Below, piece by piece: positions 3,618 to 50,439 of a stretch of 64,000 nt of DNA; within the stretch, counting starts at the first letter, position 1, and each line of letters opens with the position of its first letter. This DNA is from Francisella tularensis subsp. holarctica. GTDB taxonomy: Bacteria > Pseudomonadota > Gammaproteobacteria > Francisellales > CACEW01. The position numbers were made by a program, and so were the translations under genes. The DNA lies in the NCBI GenBank assembly GCA_945879065.1, contig CAMCUU010000002.1, positions 3,543 through 67,542 of the forward strand, read 5' to 3'. The notes below the pieces were generated by a model, which had not been told where the DNA came from, searched no databases, and saw nothing but the letters and a program-made list of their open reading frames with translations.

Positions 3618-3694
3618 TGGCGCGCCCGGAGAGATTCGAACTCCCGACCACCTGGTTCGTAGCCAGGTACTCTATCCAGCTGAGCTACGGGCGC
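3618..3694 (-). tRNA. tRNA-Arg (anticodon ACG)
   Basis: The reverse complement reads GCGCCCGTAGCTCAGCTGGATAGAGTACCTGGCTACGAACCAGGTGGTCGGGAGTTCGAATCTCTCCGGGCGCGCCA. It folds as a cloverleaf with anticodon loop CTACGAA and an encoded CCA. Confidence 0.95.
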
Positions 3695-11661: not shown

Positions 11662-12382
11662 GGCATCTCTCTTCTTGAATACCTGGAATACCTGGAACTT
11701 GAATTAAAATTTTCTCAATATTGTTAATTTTTATATTTTTATTATTTAAATTTTTAAGCTCAGTAATTTCTAAATCAGTCTCGAGATACTTGCCTTTCAT
11801 GGCCAGAAAAAAATTGGGAGAGGGGGTGTCAGAGGGTTTGATTAATAAATTTTGGCAAGCCAGAAACATATCTGTTAAAGAGCTAAAAGCTCTGGAAATA
11901 ATGATATTAAATTGATTTTTATAGTTTAAATTTTCTCCCGCTTCTTCAGCTCTTAAATTTAAAACTTCGCAATTTTTTAAATCTAATTCATAGATAACTT
12001 GCGTTAAAAATCTGGTTTTCTTCCCATTGCTGTCTAGCAAACTAAAAAATTTGCCAGGACAGGAGTCAGAGTAAGCAATAGCTAAGATTAATCCTGGGAT
12101 TCCAGCACCTGTGCCAATATCAATAATTTTGGTTAATTTATTTTCTGGGTTTTTATTTTCTAGATATTTAATAACACTGAGCGAATCTAAAACATGATGG
12201 GTCAGCATTTTTTTGGGGTCTGTTATGGCCGTTAAGTTATAAGTTTTATTCCATTTATATAATAAATTTAAATAGGCCAAGAGCTGATTAATTTGGGTGT
12301 CTGATAAATTTAAATCTAATGCTTTGACGCCCGCTCGGAGAGGCTGCTCCAGTGTTTTAAAATCCATGGTTATTTTAATCAT
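11645..12382 (-). CDS. rsmG: 16S rRNA (guanine527-N7)-methyltransferase
   Basis: [10 protein letters not shown] and the SAM motif [16 protein letters not shown]. Overlaps the uvrB start by 17 nt. Confidence 0.85.
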
Positions 12383-15691: not shown

Positions 15692-16225
15692 TTAGATTTT
15701 TTTCAGAATTTTAAACTCGTAGTCATATTGATTTTCTTTATTTTCAGGCAGGGTTTTATCATGAAATTCGGAGTGAGTTAAACACCAGTCAGAAGATTTA
15801 AAAGCTGGAAAAAACGCATCGCCGTTTAGATTCACTTTGACTTCTGTTAAATAAATCTTCGACGCATAGGGTAAGAAAATTTCATAAATCTCAGCGCCGC
15901 CGATAACCATAATCTCGATTATTTCTAGATTGTCTGGATTGTCTGGATTCTCTGGATTCTGAAGATTTAAAACATCTTGGAAATTATTAAATATCTCAGC
16001 CCCTGGAAATTTAAAATTTTGATTTCGAGTTAAAACTATATTTCGTCGCTTGGGTAATATTTTGCCAATCGATTCGAGCGTTTTTCTACCCATGACAATG
16101 GGCTTATTTAAAGTCAGCTCTCTAAATTTTTTTAAATCACTGGGCAAACTCCAGGGGAGTTGATTGTTAATCCCAATGACCTGGTTTAAAGAACAAGCGG
16201 CGATGAGAGAAATATTATTTTTCAT
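15692..16225 (-). CDS. folA: Dihydrofolate reductase
   Basis: ISLIAACSLNQVIGINNQLPW, VMGRKTLESIG, GGAEIY. The track start at 16237 is a TTG; the ATG at 16225 is preferred. Contains an in-frame PENPDNPDN repeat. Confidence 0.9.
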   Translation of the reverse strand: MKNNISLIAACSLNQVIGINNQLPWSLPSDLKKFRELTLNKPIVMGRKTLESIGKILPKRRNIVLTRNQNFKFPGAEIFNNFQDVLNLQNPENPDNPDNLEIIEIMVIGGAEIYEIFLPYASKIYLTEVKVNLNGDAFFPAFKSSDWCLTHSEFHDKTLPENKENQYDYEFKILKKI

Positions 16226-17827: not shown

Positions 17828-17901
17828 GGGATCTTATTAAATTTTTAATTATTTTTAAGATCCCAAACTTTAGCATTGAAGCCCGCTTGGACTGAAGCAA
17901 T

Positions 17902-18381
17902 TTATGCAGGTTCAGTTCCTGGGGTCTCCCCATCATCGGCAGCACCGGCGGTTTTTGTGACTCCAGCTCCAGCTCCAGCTCCAGCTCCAGCTCCAGCTCC
18001 AGCTCCAGCTCCAGCTCCAGCTCCCATTATGACTAATGAGTTTCTATCAGAGGAAGAGCGACGACCGCTGTGATCATATTCTTCTTGGCGGGACTGGTAA
18101 AAGAAGCCTACTTCAGTGCCAGCTTTTTTAAGTAGGGCAATTAAGTAGGAGTTTTCATGCCTGCCCTTGAACTCCGTAAACGCTTCATTTCTAGCGCCGC
18201 CAGTATAATTTGTGTTTATTGGGAGGTGCCGTGCTGCATTGGAAGCGTTTATATAAATAACCCAGGCTATCATAGCCTCCTCATCGGTAAGTTCTTTCAG
18301 TCTAGAAATAAGATCAGTTGCCCCGGCTACTCCAGCCTGGTTTATTTGGTATTCTAATACGGTGATAGCAAAGATTGGCAT
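17902..18381 (-). CDS. Hypothetical small protein with a (Gly-Ala)n tract (paralog 1)
   Basis: 159 aa. Paralogous to 20368..20796, sharing W(V/T)IY.NA.NAA and LxALLK(K/Q)AGT. The GA tract is encoded by (CCAGCT)10 as read on the + strand. Confidence 0.65.
   Translation of the reverse strand: MPIFAITVLEYQINQAGVAGATDLISRLKELTDEEAMIAWVIYINASNAARHLPINTNYTGGARNEAFTEFKGRHENSYLIALLKKAGTEVGFFYQSRQEEYDHSGRRSSSDRNSLVIMGAGAGAGAGAGAGAGAGAGAGVTKTAGAADDGETPGTEPA
17963..18022. repeat. Hexanucleotide microsatellite (CCAGCT)x10, in frame
   Basis: Counted directly. It encodes GAGAGA... on the minus strand. Confidence 0.9.
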
Positions 18382-18413
18382 GAAATAATCTCCTTTATGA
18401 ATTTTTTAAATAT

Positions 18414-18458
18414 TTGTACAAAACGCCGCGCATTATTTCTTTTTTTTTTTGCTGTAAA
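18414..18458 (-). promoter_or_regulatory. Conserved upstream block with a T11 tract (copy 1)
   Basis: TTGTACAAAACGCCGCGCATTATTTC-T11-GCTGTAAA. Identical to 20825-20868 except for tract length. Confidence 0.55.
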
Positions 18459-18616
18459 CCTTGTTTTTACATTAAAAGTCTAATTTTTATTAAGTTTTTA
18501 AATGTCTTTAAAAGCCCAGTGTTTCTGTCAATGCTTGTGTAAATTCCGGCGAGGAAAGTTCTGGAGTACAATGCGCCCTTTTTTCTGGGTACTGGTTTCA
18601 ATAGGGATTTAAAAAA

Positions 18617-20288
18617 ATGACGGTAGATTTTGGGATTGGTGTGAGTAATTTTGCTGAGATTATTAATCTCAAAGCAACTTATATAGACAAGACTTTATTG
18701 ATCAAAGAGCTCTTAGAAGATTTTTCTTCTGTCATTTTATTTCCCCGCCCCAGAAGGTTTGGGAAAACTTTAAATATGACCATGCTCCAGTGTTTCCTAG
18801 ATAGGAAAGACATAGAAAAAAAAAGACTTATTTATTAATTTGAAAATTTCCCAGTATTCAAAAATTTTAAAGCATCAGGGAATCTATCCCGTTATTTTTG
18901 TTTCTCTTAAAGAAATCAAAAAAGATAATTTTAAAGAAGCGCTAGAGGGCATTAGAGTTTTAATTCAAAAACTATTTCACGCCCATCAAGATCTTTATGA
19001 AGAATTAGCGCCACACTACCAAGCTCGATTTGATCGCTTATTAAATCTTGAAGGCTCCAATGCTGAGTTGGCCCAAAGCTTGCAATTTTTATCTGAAATT
19101 CTAGAGAAAAAATATGATCAAAAAGTCTGGATCTTAATCGACGAATACGACACGCCCTTGCAGCAGGCTTGGATGAAAGATTTTTACGAGCCCATGAAAT
19201 CTTTTATGCAAAGTTTTTTAGGCGCGGCTTTAAAAGACAATACTTCGCTTTATAAAAGCGTCTTAACTGGAATCATGCGGGTCTCGAAAGAAGGTTTATT
19301 TTCGGATTTAAATAATATCAAAGTCCATTCAATGCTTTCTGAAAGATATGCTTCTTATTTTGGTTTTACTGAAAAAGAGGTGGACTGGATTTGCCAAGAG
19401 GCTGGTTTATCAGATCAGCGTGAAAAAGTGCGTGAATGGTACAAGGGCTATCAGTTTGGTGACTTAGCGATTTATAACCCCTGGTCCATTATTAATGTTG
19501 CAACAGAGAAAATATTTGAATCTTATTGGGTTCAAACGGGTTCCAGTCAAATTCTTGAAGATCTAATAGCCAAATCTTCCGATGAATTTAAATCGGATTT
19601 TGAAGCTTTAATTCAGGGTAAAAATATTAAAAAATCTATTAGTGAAAGAATCTCTTTCCCAGAAATTAAAAATAGAGTTGAAGATTCTATTTGGGCCTTT
19701 TTATTATTCGCTGGGTATTTGAAAATTACTCATAAAGAAAGTACTAACCAAGATCCTATTTGCCAGCTGCAAATTCCGAACGAAGAAATCAAAGGGATTT
19801 ATCAAAGTTATTTTTTAGGCTGGCTGAAAAAATCTAATTCAAGACAGGGCGAAAAAATGCTGGATGCCTTAGTTGCTGGAGATGTGATTAATTTCGAGAA
19901 AAACTTTACCAGCTATTTACAAGAAACTCTGTCTTATTTTGATTTTGGAAAAACCATTCATCCTGAAAAATTTTACCATGCCTTAGTACTTGGCATGCTC
20001 GTGTATTTAAGAGCCACTCATCAGGTTTTATCTAATCGAGAGTCTGGGTTTGGAAGATATGACGTCATGATTATTCCCAAAGATGTTTCAAAACTGGGGA
20101 TTATTATTGAATTTAAACTCGCAGAGTCGGGGTCCAATAAAATCATGGCACAAGAAGCAGAAAGTGGTTTGGCGCAAATAGATGCTAAGAATTACCAGTC
20201 GGAATTAAATGCCAGAGGGGTTGGTCAGATTTTAAAAATCGCCATTGTGTTTTTCAAAAAGAAAGTACTGATTTTGCATGAGAGATAA
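18617..20288 (+). pseudogene. AAA-ATPase-like / PD-(D/E)XK nuclease (PDDEXK_9-type) gene, frameshifted in an A9 run
   Basis: The N-terminal ORF (YIDKTLLIKELL, RPRRFGKTLNMTML) ends at 18838 and the protein continues in another frame from 18840. The A9 tract lies at 18816-18824. The C-terminal motif GRYDVMIIP...IIIEFKL is present. Confidence 0.8.
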
Positions 20289-20367
20289 AAAAATCGGGAT
20301 CTTTAATCACTTTACTTATTTTAAGATCCCGAGTTTTGGTATTGAAGCGCGCTTGGACTGAAGAAGT

Positions 20368-20796
20368 TTATGGAAGAGAGGCGCCCCATTCCCACGCAGC
20401 ATCAGAATAATCAGCAGGGCCTACGGTTACTATGGCTCCAGCTCGAGCTCGAGCTCCAGCTCCAGCGAAAGGGGTAGCAGTACCAGCCATGGAAGCCGCC
20501 TGTTCTTTTTCGCGCTTCTGGTAAAAAAGAGCTAAGTCAGTTCCAGCTTGTTTAAGTAGGGCAACTAAGGAGGAGTTTTTATCCCTGCTCTCGAAGTCGG
20601 TACACTCAGCCTCGGTAGCGCCTGATGCATAGAATGCCCTTTGAGTGGGGGTCTTTGCTGCATTGTAAGCGTTGCTATAAATGGTCCAGCATATTGCATT
20701 TACATCATCGCCAAGGCTTTTCAGTATAAGAGTAAGATCAGACACACTAGGCAACCCAGTGTGATTTTGACCGGCAATGAAAAAAGAAAATTTCAT
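20368..20796 (-). CDS. Hypothetical small protein with a short GA/RA tract (paralog 2)
   Basis: The ATG at 20796 matches the paralog-1 start context (CATGAAATAA). C-terminal FAGAGARARAGA. Confidence 0.65.
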   Translation of the reverse strand: MKFSFFIAGQNHTGLPSVSDLTLILKSLGDDVNAICWTIYSNAYNAAKTPTQRAFYASGATEAECTDFESRDKNSSLVALLKQAGTDLALFYQKREKEQAASMAGTATPFAGAGARARAGAIVTVGPADYSDAAWEWGASLP

Positions 20797-20824
20797 GAAA
20801 TAACCTCGCTTATGGATTAAGTAG

Positions 20825-20868
20825 TTGTACAAAACGCCGCGCATTATTTCTTTTTTTTTTGCTGTAAA
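20825..20868 (-). promoter_or_regulatory. Conserved upstream block with a T10 tract (copy 2)
   Basis: Same sequence as 18414-18458 with one fewer T. Confidence 0.55.
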
Positions 20869-20892
20869 AAAGTCGAATTTTTTATTAAGTTT

Positions 20893-31043: not shown

Positions 31044-32567
31044 TTAACCAAGCCCAGTTCCATAATTATTCCCATTCCCATTCCCATTCCTATGGCCATC
31101 TAAGTGGGGGGTAGAGCCTTTTGGTTTATGTCTTTTTAATGGAACAGCGGTGTGGCCACTTGCAACTATTGTTGAACCACCTGCATCGGAGCGCGTATCC
31201 GAAGGGACGGGATCTGTTGCATTTCCAGTAGCGACTGACGCAGGCAAGTGTTTTTGATCTTTATAAACACCTAGATTTTCAACAAGAGAGCTGATGTTCA
31301 TAAAAAGCGCTAAGAGCATATTGATGCCAATACCAGCCCCGAGTTGATAATGTGGGTGGCGTTCAAAAGGAAGCTCAGTGTGCTGGGCAACCCAGTGGCC
31401 CGTTAGCTGACAACCATCTTTGATGATCGGTGCGATGGCATCTTTAGCGCTGGAAAAAAGAGGTGCAGCGGAGGGAGCCAAAGAAAGGACGGCAAGCACA
31501 ACCGCTAAGATCCTCAGGCCAGGTAAGTTTCGTTGATGCTTATTCCAAATGGGTTCTAGTCCACGAATTAATCCACGAGAAATCCATAAAATATAAAATG
31601 GATAATTAATCCCAGTGGATATCCATTGGATAGCTAAGTGAGTGCCTACAGCTGTTTTTTGAAACTGGCAGGCTATGTTTTGGCCAAGTGCATTAGGGTT
31701 GCCTAAGGCAGTCAAGACACTGGCTCGCATAGTGAGTACATACAGCGCTGAGCCAATGACCGAAACAGCTGATAATAAGCCAATGATGCGTTTGACGCTG
31801 GGGCTATTTTCTAAACCGTGAGTGTTCTTCTCTAGATCAAACCATTCATAGCGGTAGGCGTTTTTTAAATAATTCCAGGTATCTGGGATAGCGGCAAAGC
31901 CTTGAAGAACAGCTAAAGCCCGAGCGATGGCAGTCATATACCAACCGAAGACGGTCCCCACTGAACCCGGTAAATCTAAAAGCACTGCTCCAGCAACAGT
32001 GGCTTCCAGCATGGAAATAGCAGCAGTGAGGCAGAGAGGGTAAAGAAGAGCAGCTATAAGATCAGCAGGGATTCCCGTCAGGCCACAAAAAGCATTGAAT
32101 AATTTTTGATATTTTTGTCGCGTGGTATTTTTTCCATCTTTCTTCGGGCCGACCAAAAAGTTTCTAAACACTAAATAATAAAGCCCAAAGTTAATGACCG
32201 CGCTATCTCCAGCGGTTACCCATCGAAATGGATTAGAGTGAATTTCTGTTGAGCCTTGGCGATTCATACATACATAAGCAAAAGCAACAGGGAGCGCTAA
32301 AACAACGGCTGTTTTATTTAAGTTTGCAAGAGTGGTTCCTAAGGCGCTCATCTCTTGCTTAAACCAATCGCAGCATGTTTGTTTTTTAGGAGTCATAAAA
32401 GCGCTTGCTGAAGTGGGTAACTCAGAAGTTAAAAGCGAGCTTCCAGGACCAGCCTCAGGATCTGTATTGGGGCCTTGAGGTGCTGGGGTGTCAGGGGTTC
32501 CATAACTTGTTCCATTCCCCAAAACAGCATTCAGTGGATTAAAGACGTTCGTGGGTTGTCCTGACAT
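31044..32567 (-). CDS. Large polytopic membrane orphan with disordered termini (507 aa)
   Basis: About 10 hydrophobic segments, a Pro/Gly/Thr-rich N-terminus and a (GN)n C-terminal tail. Confidence 0.62.
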   Translation of the reverse strand: MSGQPTNVFNPLNAVLGNGTSYGTPDTPAPQGPNTDPEAGPGSSLLTSELPTSASAFMTPKKQTCCDWFKQEMSALGTTLANLNKTAVVLALPVAFAYVCMNRQGSTEIHSNPFRWVTAGDSAVINFGLYYLVFRNFLVGPKKDGKNTTRQKYQKLFNAFCGLTGIPADLIAALLYPLCLTAAISMLEATVAGAVLLDLPGSVGTVFGWYMTAIARALAVLQGFAAIPDTWNYLKNAYRYEWFDLEKNTHGLENSPSVKRIIGLLSAVSVIGSALYVLTMRASVLTALGNPNALGQNIACQFQKTAVGTHLAIQWISTGINYPFYILWISRGLIRGLEPIWNKHQRNLPGLRILAVVLAVLSLAPSAAPLFSSAKDAIAPIIKDGCQLTGHWVAQHTELPFERHPHYQLGAGIGINMLLALFMNISSLVENLGVYKDQKHLPASVATGNATDPVPSDTRSDAGGSTIVASGHTAVPLKRHKPKGSTPHLDGHRNGNGNGNNYGTGLG

Positions 32568-46284: not shown

Positions 46285-46336
46285 TCTGGGCTGCTAGATT
46301 GGGCTGCTAGATTGGGCTGCTAGATTGGGCTGCTAG
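46285..46336. repeat. 13-bp tandem repeat x4 (nTTGGGCTGCTAG)
   Basis: TCTGGGCTGCTAG followed by three copies of ATTGGGCTGCTAG. The last copy contains the stop codon of ATPase B. Confidence 0.85.
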
Positions 46337-47802
46337 GTCTGGAAAAGATCTTCTAGAACTACCACCCCGGTGACCAGCTCATGAAAATATTTATTTTCTT
46401 TCAAGCCAGTGGCTGAAATAAATGCAAGAAAAATTTGATTTTTCGTGCGCGTTTTTTCTTTATAAATATTTATTTTTTGCTTTAAATTTTCTGCATAATC
46501 TTGATCAATCAAAAAGGCGTCTTTGCTATATTTAATTTCACAGACCGTTGTCACGCCATCATCTCGCTCAAACAGCAAGTCAATTTGGGTTCCCGCCCCA
46601 GAATTTTCAGATCGTGGCGTGTATTTCCAGGCGCCACTGATGGCGCTGCCACTGATCCCCAAAGCATTTTTAATCTCCGTAATATGTTTATAACACAGGG
46701 ACTCAAAGGCATAGCCCATCCAGTTGTAATACGGCGGTGTTCCTATTTTTTCTGACCAAAATTTTCTATTTCGCTCTTCAGCAATGAAACTGCCTTTTGT
46801 GGGCTCTATCCATTTTAAATAAAAATAACAGTACTCATCCGTCACTCGATAGTAAGCGCCCTGCCGTTTATTACCGAGGGGGATAAAAGACTTGATAAAC
46901 CCAGTGCTTTCTAGATCCTCCAGCTTCTCTGTTAGCGTACCGCCCATGGATAAAAATTGACTCTTAGATTCGATATAAGCGCGATCAACGCCCGATCTTT
47001 TATCTGCAATGATTCGAATTAATTCTTTATAAACGGGTGCATTTTCAAAAAGAGAATCAAACACTTTATCAAATTCAGAATATAAAATGCCGTTCTCTCT
47101 AAAGCACAACTTATCAATCATCTGAGCGGCAGACTGCCCTTTTCTAATATGAGATAAATAAAAGGGAATTCCCCCACAAAACATGTAAATTTGTGTTATC
47201 TGCTCGTGATTTAAATCCAGTCCTGTCTTTTTAAAAAACTGTGCCGTTTCGCTTAAATTAAAAGGGCGTAACAAGATCTCACGAGTTGTTCTGTTATGAA
47301 GTCCGCCCTTATTTCTAATAATTTTTTTGATAATCCAAGAGGCGCTCGAACCACAAATAATTAATTTAATTCGTGGATCATTTTTCCAGCGTCGATTCCA
47401 ATAATGATCCAAGGCCTGAAGTAATCGAGATTTTTTAGTACAGAGCCAGGGCAGCTCATCCAAAAATAAAATAATTTTTCTATTGCCACTTAGATGATTA
47501 AGCGCCTTTGTCAGCTCTTCAAAAGCCTTCATCCAAGACGCTGATTTCTCAATGGAAGCACCCTGATAAAAAGTCTCCCCGATAGACTTCCCGAATTCAT
47601 TTAATTGCTCAGAGAGCGTGCCGTCTTGAACGCCAGTGACGTGAAAAAAATGGCAGGGTTTTGATTTGAAAAACTCTTCAATTAAGAAAGTTTTACCAAT
47701 TCGTCTTCGACCATAAACAGTCACAAACTCTGCTTTTCCAGAATTAAAGACATCCAGTAATTCTGCTTTCTCTTCTCTGCGACCCGCAATAATATTGATC
47801 AT
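46333..47802 (-). CDS. COG1672-type AAA ATPase with C-terminal D..ExK nuclease-like motif (paralog B)
   Basis: Collinear with 27939..29450: YGRRRIGKTFLIEE, LDELPWLCT, ICGSSASWIIKKII, QIDLLFERDDGVTTVCEIKY. Confidence 0.85.
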   Translation of the reverse strand: MINIIAGRREEKAELLDVFNSGKAEFVTVYGRRRIGKTFLIEEFFKSKPCHFFHVTGVQDGTLSEQLNEFGKSIGETFYQGASIEKSASWMKAFEELTKALNHLSGNRKIILFLDELPWLCTKKSRLLQALDHYWNRRWKNDPRIKLIICGSSASWIIKKIIRNKGGLHNRTTREILLRPFNLSETAQFFKKTGLDLNHEQITQIYMFCGGIPFYLSHIRKGQSAAQMIDKLCFRENGILYSEFDKVFDSLFENAPVYKELIRIIADKRSGVDRAYIESKSQFLSMGGTLTEKLEDLESTGFIKSFIPLGNKRQGAYYRVTDEYCYFYLKWIEPTKGSFIAEERNRKFWSEKIGTPPYYNWMGYAFESLCYKHITEIKNALGISGSAISGAWKYTPRSENSGAGTQIDLLFERDDGVTTVCEIKYSKDAFLIDQDYAENLKQKINIYKEKTRTKNQIFLAFISATGLKENKYFHELVTGVVVLEDLFQT

Positions 47803-47814
47803 TTTGATGCTTTC

Positions 47815-47919
47815 TGTGTTAGTTGGCTGAATATAAATCTATCATAATCAGCCGACTAATACAAAAATCCTGTGTTAGTTGGCTGATTATGACCTTTCTA
47901 TAATCAGCCGACTAACACA
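47815..47919. promoter_or_regulatory. Two palindromes upstream of ATPase B
   Basis: B1 is TGTGTTAGTTGGCTGA-N17-TCAGCCGACTAATACA (47815-47863). B2 is TGTGTTAGTTGGCTGATTAT-N9-ATAATCAGCCGACTAACACA (47871-47919). Confidence 0.75.
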
Positions 47920-47939
47920 AATTATTGATTAAATTTTAT

Positions 47940-49617: not shown

Positions 49618-50439
49618 TTAAGAAGCTCCTCCTGGGACAGGGGTTGATCCATGGGCTTGTTCAGATGTTTTTTCTTTGTCAGCAACTGGGGCGGCTTGAA
49701 CATAGACCAGATCCATAACAACAGTGGCAGAAGCGCCAGGGCCCCCTGCACCTGCACCTGAACCTGAACCTGAACCTGAACCCGCACCAGCACTTGCAGG
49801 CTCATCCCGTTCATCACCCTCTGCCTCTCCTTCAGGACTCTCAGAGAAAAATACGCGTTGGCTCTCCTCAGTCCATAGCGCTTCACTCAGACGATGCAAT
49901 AACACTGAGAAATAAGCCGCGCCTTGTGGACTTTTAATACTTTCCAAATCTGCAGGCTTAATATGGCCATCAATATTTCTAAAAAGCACAAAGCCCGGAG
50001 CTCTGTATCCCTTTATTATTTCTAAAATTGCCGCCTCATAGGCTTCATACAAGGGCACAAAGTTGCGACCTGCGACGCTTTTTGGAGAGACTGATTTCCC
50101 CTCAGCGTCAGGCTCACTAAGGAACTTATGGGTTAAACGATTTAATTGCCCAGCCAGCTTGTAGGCGAATAAATAATTAAAAAATTTATTCTCTGCCGTA
50201 GCGCCGTATGACAAGCTATCCAATGCTTTTTTTAGTTCTTCAAAAAGCTTTGTTTGCAAGCCATGTTCTGGTAAAGAGCCAGTAAACCAAGACAAGAGCG
50301 CTGCACCAGTACCTATAGGGTCCAACACACACTCAGTCACAGATTTTTGCGCAAGGGGATTCTTGTAAGCGATCACAAAATCTTCGAAGGCTTGTTTCAA
50401 GCCTTCGACCATGACATCAATGGGCGTTACTCCTGACAT
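49618..50439 (-). CDS. Ala/Gly-rich orphan protein (273 aa), tandem paralog of the 510-aa protein
   Basis: Collinear blocks shared with 50480..52012: LKQAFEDFVIAYKN vs LKAALDVFVTTYAN, QTKLFEELKKAL vs QTELFRNLQAAL, LLHRLSEALWTEESQ vs LLEGLESVCWTAEAQ. Also carries a GSGSGSGSGAGAG tract. Confidence 0.6.
   Translation of the reverse strand: MSGVTPIDVMVEGLKQAFEDFVIAYKNPLAQKSVTECVLDPIGTGAALLSWFTGSLPEHGLQTKLFEELKKALDSLSYGATAENKFFNYLFAYKLAGQLNRLTHKFLSEPDAEGKSVSPKSVAGRNFVPLYEAYEAAILEIIKGYRAPGFVLFRNIDGHIKPADLESIKSPQGAAYFSVLLHRLSEALWTEESQRVFFSESPEGEAEGDERDEPASAGAGSGSGSGSGAGAGGPGASATVVMDLVYVQAAPVADKEKTSEQAHGSTPVPGGAS

Follow-up and report, generated by a model that had tools for sequence, protein, structure and literature searches.

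To our knowledge, nearly all promoter switches driven by repeats have been described in cultured pathogens. The strength of a sigma-70 promoter depends on the length of its spacer, and the promoter repeats of Neisseria and Haemophilus include the poly-C tract of opc, the poly-G tract of porA and the (TA)n repeat of hifA/B. In the vlp genes, the tract comprises about 17-20 A residues and has a defined 'on' length. These genes form a multigene family of Mycoplasma hyorhinis, each member of which has a poly-A tract in its promoter (Citti and Wise 1995, summarised in PMC10502178). The 5A and 6A alleles of nspA show that expression can respond to one additional A in a promoter tract, which in this gene is located outside the -35/-10 spacer (PMC6389960). 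The PhasomeIt cut-off for candidate phase-variable loci is a tract of at least 10 A or T (PMC6321876).

The window, i.e. the whole stretch of 64 kb of DNA analysed here, contains the minus-strand block TTTACAGC-An-GAAATAATGCGCGGCGTTTTGTACAA twice, at 18414-18458 with n=11 (copy A) and at 20825-20868 with n=10 (copy B). Each copy precedes a gene for a protein with a GA-type repeat (GA protein). We assign a probability of roughly 0.5 to the reading that the block is a weak, portable promoter, which would strengthen stepwise with the length of the tract, so that slippage would generate heritable expression variants of the gene behind it.

As judged from its layout, the vlp family would be the closest analogue in design. 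In both cases paralogues share a promoter block (here a predicted one) with a poly-A tract, and indels in the vlp tract change transcription. Both families also have in-frame coding repeats of variable size, which are (GA)n and (GT)n in the present case and are the places where contigs break. In contrast, a signal peptide, which the Vlp lipoproteins have, was not visible by eye in the present proteins. The present tract has 9-11 A and is known from sequence alone, whereas vlp switching has been shown experimentally, and the present host is proteobacterium-like and not a mollicute. The best matches of its ThyA in the genome collection were about 70% identical and spread across Proteobacteria. 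The Neisseria and Haemophilus systems are similar in that length alleles differ between isolates, and would also be similar in that a repeat in or beside the core promoter steps expression. They differ in that they mostly have G/C or dinucleotide tracts, occur in cultured pathogens and have measured switching rates, whereas the present data are comparative metagenome sequences.

Structure of the block

On the plus strand, TTGTACAAAACGCCGCGCATTATTTC was found by direct reading and by a pattern search as an exact match at 18414-18439 and 20825-20850, while 0 of 100 shuffles contained it. It is followed in copy A by T11 (18440-18450) and GCTGTAAA (18451-18458), and in copy B by T10 (20851-20860) and GCTGTAAA (20861-20868). 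The first-pass annotation had reported the block in front of both GA genes with n=11 and n=10, and this was confirmed. The two tracts are the only homopolymers of at least 10 bases in the 64 kb and are also the longest in the window. Homopolymers of this length are depleted, as 10.8 ± 3.3 were expected from an order-3 Markov model and 2 were observed.

The start codons of the two minus-strand paralogues are located 32-33 nt downstream of their blocks. Whereas the upstream block is 100% identical between the copies, the encoded proteins are just 43% identical (over 88 residues). An alignment of the DNA of copy A and copy B gave the same picture, with diverged coding regions between two nearly identical flanks, the 5' block and a 3' block.

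The constant region was delimited by an alignment of all alleles of the block, including those of related strains. It consists of the A/T-rich sequence AAACTTAATAAAAAATT(A/C)GACTTT, an optional segment of 16 nt and TTTACAGC-An-(GA or TATT)-AATAATGCGCGGCGTTTT. After GGCGTTTT, the alleles diverge at once into unrelated gene-specific leaders. The putative constant core-promoter block of copy A, TTTACAGC-A11-GAAATAATGCGCGGCGTTTT, extends over 18420-18458 on the minus strand; the alleles are identical outside the tract region, and the homology of relatives ends at 18420. At its 5' edge is the predicted -35 hexamer TTTACA (18453-18458), followed by the A11 tract (18440-18450), which forms the bulk of a predicted spacer of 15 bp, the predicted -10 hexamer AATAAT (18432-18437) and, directly after it, a GC-rich discriminator, GCGCGGCG (18424-18431). 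Further upstream, copy A has the 16-nt segment of its allele type (18459-18474) and an A/T-rich, UP-element-like sequence, AAACTTAATAAAAATTAGACTTT (18475-18497), which is conserved in all alleles.

The corresponding minus-strand block of copy B, TTTACAGC-A10-GAAATAATGCGCGGCGTTTT, extends over 20831-20868, with the predicted -35 hexamer at 20863-20868, the A10 tract at 20851-20860 and the predicted -10 hexamer at 20843-20848. Its A/T-rich upstream element, AAACTTAATAAAAAATTCGACTTT (20869-20892, minus strand), lies directly after the stop codon of the gene for a 539-aa ATPase. Within the upstream element of copy A, the run at 18484-18488 is A5, while copy B and every relative have A6. This is a second one-base run difference within the promoter region of copy A.

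The palindrome TTGTACAA (18414-18421 in copy A) had been regarded as part of the shared block. It mainly forms the start of the gene-specific 5' leader, and only its plus-strand bases 18420-18421 overlap the end of the constant block. It was absent from two of the five distinct alleles of relatives, as L092 and L087 have AAAAAA... instead, and in the alignment of relatives it occurred only before genes of the 'MPIFAIT/MKFSFF' type. Its two occurrences in the window are both at the blocks; 25 of 100 shuffles contained at least two matches, so this count is compatible with chance. The palindrome was therefore not retained as part of the block.

Neighbouring genes

Copy A is located between a divergently transcribed gene of the AAA-ATPase_like/PDDEXK_9 type and lgt-thyA-folA, and copy B is located 24 nt past the stop codon of the 539-aa ATPase_2 gene. 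The 3' block common to both copies consists of TTCAGTCCAAGCG(G/C)GCTTCAAT and a hairpin, GGGATCTT...AAGATCCC. In copy A (17828-17896, minus strand) these are TTCAGTCCAAGCGGGCTTCAAT at 17875-17896 and the hairpin GGGATCTTA...TAAGATCCC at 17828-17864, and the duplicate in copy B (20296-20362, minus strand) is located at 20341-20362 with its hairpin at 20296-20330. The hairpin GGGATCTTA-loop-TAAGATCCC abuts the start codon of lgt with no Shine-Dalgarno sequence between them, and it had no match in Rfam. Together with TTCAGTCCAAGCGGGCTTCAAT it is possibly a leader element of lgt. The contig L091, which comes from a more distant relative and is about 82% identical, has no GA gene at lgt and yet keeps the 3' block and the hairpin before lgt. 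This suggests that the 3' block originated as the leader of lgt and was copied together with the GA gene.

Copy A is separated by no predicted terminator from lgt, thyA and folA, which lie downstream of it, so that a hard off state of copy A could carry a cost if lgt lacks a promoter of its own. For copy B, read-through from the ATPase gene 24 nt upstream is also conceivable.

The AAA-ATPase_like/PDDEXK_9 gene (18617-20288, plus strand) is split into ORFs of 73 and 482 aa by an A9 run at 18816-18824, which was repeated in the Logan assembly. In relatives this position reads A7CA3, with two bases more, and the gene is intact and encodes 557-560 aa. The split gene may be a pseudogene caused by the frameshift, or else it may represent a second off state related to slippage. 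Tandem copies of 55-56 nt with inverted repeats recognised by eye are present at 27791-27922 (2.4 copies) and 47814-47921 (1.9 copies), directly upstream of ATPase_2 (PF01637) paralogues at 27939-29450 (plus strand) and 46333-47802 (minus strand). A resolvase-family protein (PF00239) is encoded at 24064-24684 (minus strand) and is kept beside the locus in relatives. Its Pfam match begins only at profile position 20, and its N-terminus reads MIYGYVCTHEHADQ where the catalytic-serine motif is expected.

Prediction of a core promoter

The block is best read as a core promoter with the -35 hexamer TTTACA, a spacer of n+4 bases, the -10 hexamer AATAAT and a GC-rich discriminator, and the A tract is most probably located in the spacer of such a promoter of the sigma-70 type. 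The conserved block opens with TTTACA, which matches the -35 consensus at five of six positions, and its 3' edge lies about 5 nt past the predicted start. AATAAT followed by GCGCGG is the same layout of -10 hexamer and GC-rich discriminator as in the ordinary promoters of the window. The promoter of the tRNA at 3694 reads TTGACA-18-TACAAT-TGCGCC and that of rpmB TTGAAT-17-TATAAA-GGCGCC; TACAAT-GCGCCC is located about 40 nt ahead of the ATG of the divergent ATPase gene beside copy A, and another intergenic site has TATAAT-GGCGCC. The identity of the promoter and its start site are inferred.

Promoter strength was estimated with a crude sigma-70 model based on consensus frequencies after Harley and Reynolds, and the scores are a rough guide only. 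TTTACA/AATAAT was the top hexamer pair for n of at least 9 and scored 2.1 bits at n=9, 3.8 bits at n=10, 6.4 bits at n=11, 8.2 bits at n=12 and 9.3 bits at n=13. For comparison, the rpmB promoter scored 7.0 bits and the tRNA promoter 15.1 bits. The pure-tract alleles A9, A10 and A11 correspond to spacers of 13, 14 and 15 bp, which is 2-4 bp below the 17-18 bp of the housekeeping promoters in the window, and a spacer of 16-18 bp is reached by no observed allele. Since all spacers are below the housekeeping length, a weak promoter is predicted, which would gain strength with every A inserted. In Escherichia coli, spacers of 13-15 bp would count as poor, so that expression of the genes is mostly weak unless the -35 hexamer has been misassigned.

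The first-pass annotation had placed the tract between TTTACA and a -10 hexamer that could be AATAAT or TAATGC. The first of these pairs was upheld as the top-scoring one, although it is predicted only. TAATGC, with spacers of 15-17 bp, was rejected, as it has no final T and scored below AATAAT at every n, by 2.0-3.5 bits at n=10 and n=11 after the spacer penalty.

Other assignments were also considered. A terminator or a structured leader was rejected, because RNA folding of both strands gave Z-scores of 0.08 to 2.6, i.e. a stability no better than that of shuffles. In the Rfam search of the window at the gathering threshold, only RNase P RNA and two tRNAs were found and no family matched the block. 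A consensus promoter scan, which admits only spacers of 16-18 bp, did not flag the block. No match to the consensus sequences of sigma-54, sigma-28 or sigma-32 promoters was recognised by eye. PmrA-type tandem TTAAT boxes in the upstream element were rejected, since the spacing is 18 nt and not about 11 nt.

Length of the tract in related strains

Contigs of related strains were obtained via exact-protein look-ups of neighbouring genes. At the lgt-adjacent locus, the tract is A11 in the window and in the Logan contig L084, A10 in ERZ650269 (L092) and A9 in ERZ27247968, JGI 3300023184, ERZ3460575 and SRR7991489 (L093-L096). Variation of the tract length between isolates, which the first-pass annotation had led one to expect, was thus present at this locus, with A11, A10 and A9 in three strains. 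The A9 and A10 alleles front the same gene and have otherwise identical flanks. At the ATPase-adjacent locus, the window, the Logan contig L085 and L087-L089 have A10, while L090 and L081 have A8-TATT. The total length therefore did not change among three strains (A10, A10 and A8-TATT), as A8-TATT differs from A10-GA by three substitutions at equal length.

The Logan contigs of ERR5863116 repeated both lengths (T11 in L084 and A10 in L085) and were 100% identical to the window where compared; a further contig of ERR5863116 (L082) was 100% identical to the window over 6.6 kb. Contigs of at least four assemblies cross the tracts with a single length per locus and thus give no indication of strong heterogeneity inside a sample. 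This is a weak test, because assemblies hide minor variants and some of them may share reads.

The window and L093, which are 97.9% identical over 1956 nt, differ by just three indels. One is located in the promoter tract, one in a T5/T6 run in the upstream element, and the third is the A9 versus A7CA3 difference in the ATPase-like gene. Runs of 8-9 bases in coding regions did not change in length, except for the frameshifting A9 tract. By these comparisons the promoter tract is a genuine indel hot spot between strains, as expected from slipped-strand mispairing, and A10 and A11 are within the range of lengths that PhasomeIt takes as hypermutable. The spread is narrow (9, 10, 10, 10, 11), and one allele lost the purity of the homopolymer yet kept its length. 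This A8-TATT allele suggests selection on length rather than on mutability.

Most indels between strains were in-frame changes of 9, 12 or 18 nt in the copy number of tandem repeats within genes. Such sites are located at 15924-15958, at 11677-11697, in the region of 22755 and elsewhere; a PDN-type repeat in the DHFR gene is one example. Repeat-length polymorphism is common in the lineage.

Exchange of genes at the two sites

The borders of homology between the window and its relatives were determined by BLAST. L087 was 98% identical to the window over 7.7 kb, and its homology ended at 20831. The homology of L092 and L093 ended at 18420, and that of L086 and L092 picked up again at 17973, just 3' of the (GA)n repeat. 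The homology of relatives thus breaks exactly at ...GGCGTTTT and returns past the dipeptide repeat, and other genes, including one for an ankyrin protein, are located between these points. The swapped intervals are 17973-18420 and 20372-20831, in which close strains with flanks of 95-98% identity carry different genes (L086, L087, L090, L092 and L093). The breakpoints are formed by the promoter block on one side and by the dipeptide repeat or the stop codon on the other.

The window has GA proteins at both sites. ERZ650269 has a gene for a 216-aa orphan at the lgt site (L092) and a gene of the MPIFAIT type at the ATPase site (L090). The strain represented by ERZ27247968 and JGI 3300023184 carries a gene of the 216-aa type beside lgt (L086, L093) and one for an ankyrin-repeat protein at the ATPase site (Pfam Ank_2, E = 2e-11). 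Besides its long (GT)n(GA)n repeat, this ankyrin protein has a second domain, and it ends in the tail ...ATPFAGAGAGVTKTAGAADDGETPGTEPA, which is identical to the tail of copy A in the window. The allele of L090 is a mosaic of both upstream flank types.

As judged from these alignments, the block is what stays constant at the 5' end of a small gene family whose members are exchangeable, and this suffices to account for the identity of its two copies. The first-pass annotation had taken this identity as evidence for a switch. That argument was given up, since the block is the constant 5' end of exchangeable genes and the homology breakpoints lie at its edge.

In viral contigs there were three matches to an 18-mer from the block, none of them (0 of 3) in the context TTTACAGC-An, and all were regarded as chance matches. 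A scan of metagenomes with a 21-mer including TTGTACAA, which was over-specific because the palindrome lies outside the constant block, gave one chance match inside a coding region (L083).

Proteins encoded behind the block

The copy A gene (17902-18381, minus strand) encodes 159 aa and is preceded by the ribosome-binding site AAGGAG (18390-18395). The protein consists of an orphan N-terminal domain, (GA)11 and the tail VTKTAGAADDGETPGTEPA. The (GA)n sequence is encoded by a hexanucleotide repeat, GCTGGA, which was detected with a tandem repeat finder in 10.7 copies at 17961-18024 (minus strand) and includes the 3' recombination boundary at 17973. The copy B gene (20368-20796, minus strand) encodes 142 aa. 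The protein has an N-domain paralogous to that of copy A, together with a short GAGARARAG repeat and a tail that has diverged. The ATG at 20796, which has a GAGG ribosome-binding site, was taken as the start of the gene. A longer ORF from 20844 was rejected, as it opens merely at an ATG within the block.

No Pfam family was found for either GA protein, and exact-sequence look-ups of both gave no record. Searches for homologues among 5.8 billion protein clusters and 1.84 billion representatives yielded the chimeric P0001, copy B itself (P0016, an exact copy of the protein) and low-complexity noise. The N-domain of copy A is, as far as these protein cluster searches go, an orphan for which homologues outside the lineage were not found. 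P0001 is encoded on L081 (ENA ERZ650281, 1267 nt), which is 91% identical to copy A over about 385 nt and then runs in frame into an AhpC/Redoxin gene. The chimera probably arose in assembly, by a join at low coverage through a short sequence common to both genes. An AlphaFold2 model based on a 3-sequence alignment had a mean pLDDT of 43.5 and was too poor for a fold search.

A lipoprotein signal, i.e. a hydrophobic segment with a lipobox cysteine, was not seen by eye in MPIFAITVLEYQINQAG..., MKFSFFIAGQNHTG..., MAGRSYSGESF... or MSGIELTAAV.... The variable N-domain, the dipeptide-repeat linker, the shared acidic tail of small residues and the one ankyrin member suggest that the genes form a set that may be co-regulated and is possibly secreted and host-directed. 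The effector repertoires of intracellular bacteria include, for example, Dot/Icm substrates of Legionella or Coxiella with ankyrin repeats and C-terminal signals. The present proteins may resemble these in combining orphan or ankyrin N-domains with a shared short, acidic, small-residue tail and in a gene content that varies between close strains. They differ in that their C-terminal tail had no database match and that the Pfam scan of ORFs of the 64-kb window revealed no secretion genes.

Further orphan proteins with dipeptide repeats near the C-terminus are encoded on the minus strand at 54924-56972 (...TPFLGAGAGAGKPIAATVSTTDPK), 31044-32567 (...NGNGNGNNYGTGLG) and 49618-50439 (...AGAGSGSGSGSGAGAG...). 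The two larger ones had no Pfam match, and none of the three has the promoter block. MSG is the N-terminal sequence of several of these repeat-bearing orphans, and likewise of an adjacent orphan (50480-52012) and of the relative's ankyrin protein.

Evaluation of the explanations

According to the proposed explanation, the block would be a portable core promoter of the sigma-70 type, composed of the A/T-rich upstream element, TTTACA, a spacer of nearly all A, AATAAT and the GC-rich discriminator. As a constant module, it would stand at the 5' end of the exchangeable genes of a small family specific to the lineage. The members of this family would combine a variable N-terminal domain (orphan or ankyrin repeats) with a (GA)n or (GT)n linker and, in most cases, a shared C-terminal tail. 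If the module is inherited or exchanged as a unit, identical copies would result and homology between strains would end at its 3' edge. The A tract would be the sole slippage-prone site inside the module, and A9, A10 and A11 would give the spacers of 13, 14 and 15 bp. With the crude model, the promoter would be weak and would become stronger with each added A, with an optimum near A13. Transcription would thereby be tuned stepwise and heritably, and in the window strain copy A (15 bp) would be transcribed more strongly than copy B (14 bp). An off/low/on switch would be possible if longer alleles arise.

The first-pass annotation had suggested on/off or volume control. With spacers of 13-15 bp in all alleles, a weak promoter strengthening with length fits better than a clean on/off switch. 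The latter appears doubtful, because it needs alleles of 12-14 A and none was among those observed; with spacers of 13-15 bp, no allele looks fully 'on'. The tract may tune or switch the expression of both genes, and the block is plausibly a case of the known promoter-repeat phase variation in an uncultured lineage. The sequence anatomy, the homology breakpoints and the length polymorphism between strains were observed directly, whereas any effect on expression and any reversibility at high frequency are inferred.

The less probable but serious competitor is that the constant module acts as a promoter and as a 5' anchor of recombination or gene conversion, and that the indels of one or two bases represent neutral slippage whose regulatory effect is not exploited. 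Homology breakpoints exactly at the edge of the block and mosaic alleles such as that of L090 are in line with it, and so are length differences of just one or two bases clustered at 10. The A8-TATT allele shows that a pure homopolymer is dispensable, and other indels of one or two bases between strains also occurred in A/T runs. However, the tract occupies the position where length counts most in a sigma-70 promoter, and it had three alleles among three close strains, versus two other indels in the 1956 nt of flanking sequence. As far as is known, changes of one base in such spacers or promoter tracts have also altered expression measurably wherever tested, as in nspA (PMC6389960). An artefact of assembly or sequencing would be a very improbable cause of the length differences. 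Homopolymers of 10-11 bases are error-prone on some platforms and the source is a metagenome assembly, but T11 and A10 were repeated locus by locus in the independent Logan assembly, and A9 and A10 were each repeated in three or four assemblies of relatives.

It is improbable, although not to the degree of an artefact, that the tract is a protein-binding or DNA-curvature element or an A-rich translation enhancer within a 5' leader whose real promoter is further upstream. Such a leader would start with the conserved ATG inside AATAATGCGCGG, which would open a short upstream ORF beginning with MRGVL. The frame ATG-CGC-GGC-GTT-TT(G/A) is indeed present in every allele, with ORFs of 7-23 codons or, in copy B, an in-frame extension of the gene (ORF 20368-20844). 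For a functional promoter, spacers of 13-15 bp would be unusually short, and there is a conserved A/T-rich element upstream. Against a leader, the conserved ATG is preceded by no Shine-Dalgarno sequence, the A8-TATT allele being without any; the nucleotides are invariant including third codon positions, while the 'peptide' is not conserved past codon 5. The distance between the upstream element and the block differs by 16 nt between allele types, a stable RNA structure was not predicted, and the -10 hexamer with its GC discriminator has the layout of the ordinary promoters of the window. The weak, length-dependent promoter is the preferred reading.

Significance of the locus

A more far-reaching interpretation, which we consider rather unlikely, is that of a contingency locus in an uncultivated bacterium that is probably associated with eukaryotes. 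The poly-A-spacer promoter would gate or tune expression, while homologous exchange would swap effector-like N-domains at the two sites. This exchange would take place between the promoter and a constant module of dipeptide repeat and tail, and the orphan, the second orphan and the ankyrin N-domains would be swapped in. If this interpretation is true, phase variation would be combined with cassette replacement for secreted proteins.

If the tract is neutral, the locus still illustrates neatly how genes can be replaced as modules with a promoter as the anchor. If it is a length-dependent promoter, a case known only from environmental metagenomes would widen the reach of this bet-hedging mechanism to genes that are exchanged between close strains, including one for an ankyrin protein. 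What the locus would add is a gene cassette that can be exchanged while the promoter at one end of it stays fixed. One promoter and one tail would then provide a handle for finding co-regulated, possibly co-secreted proteins in this lineage.
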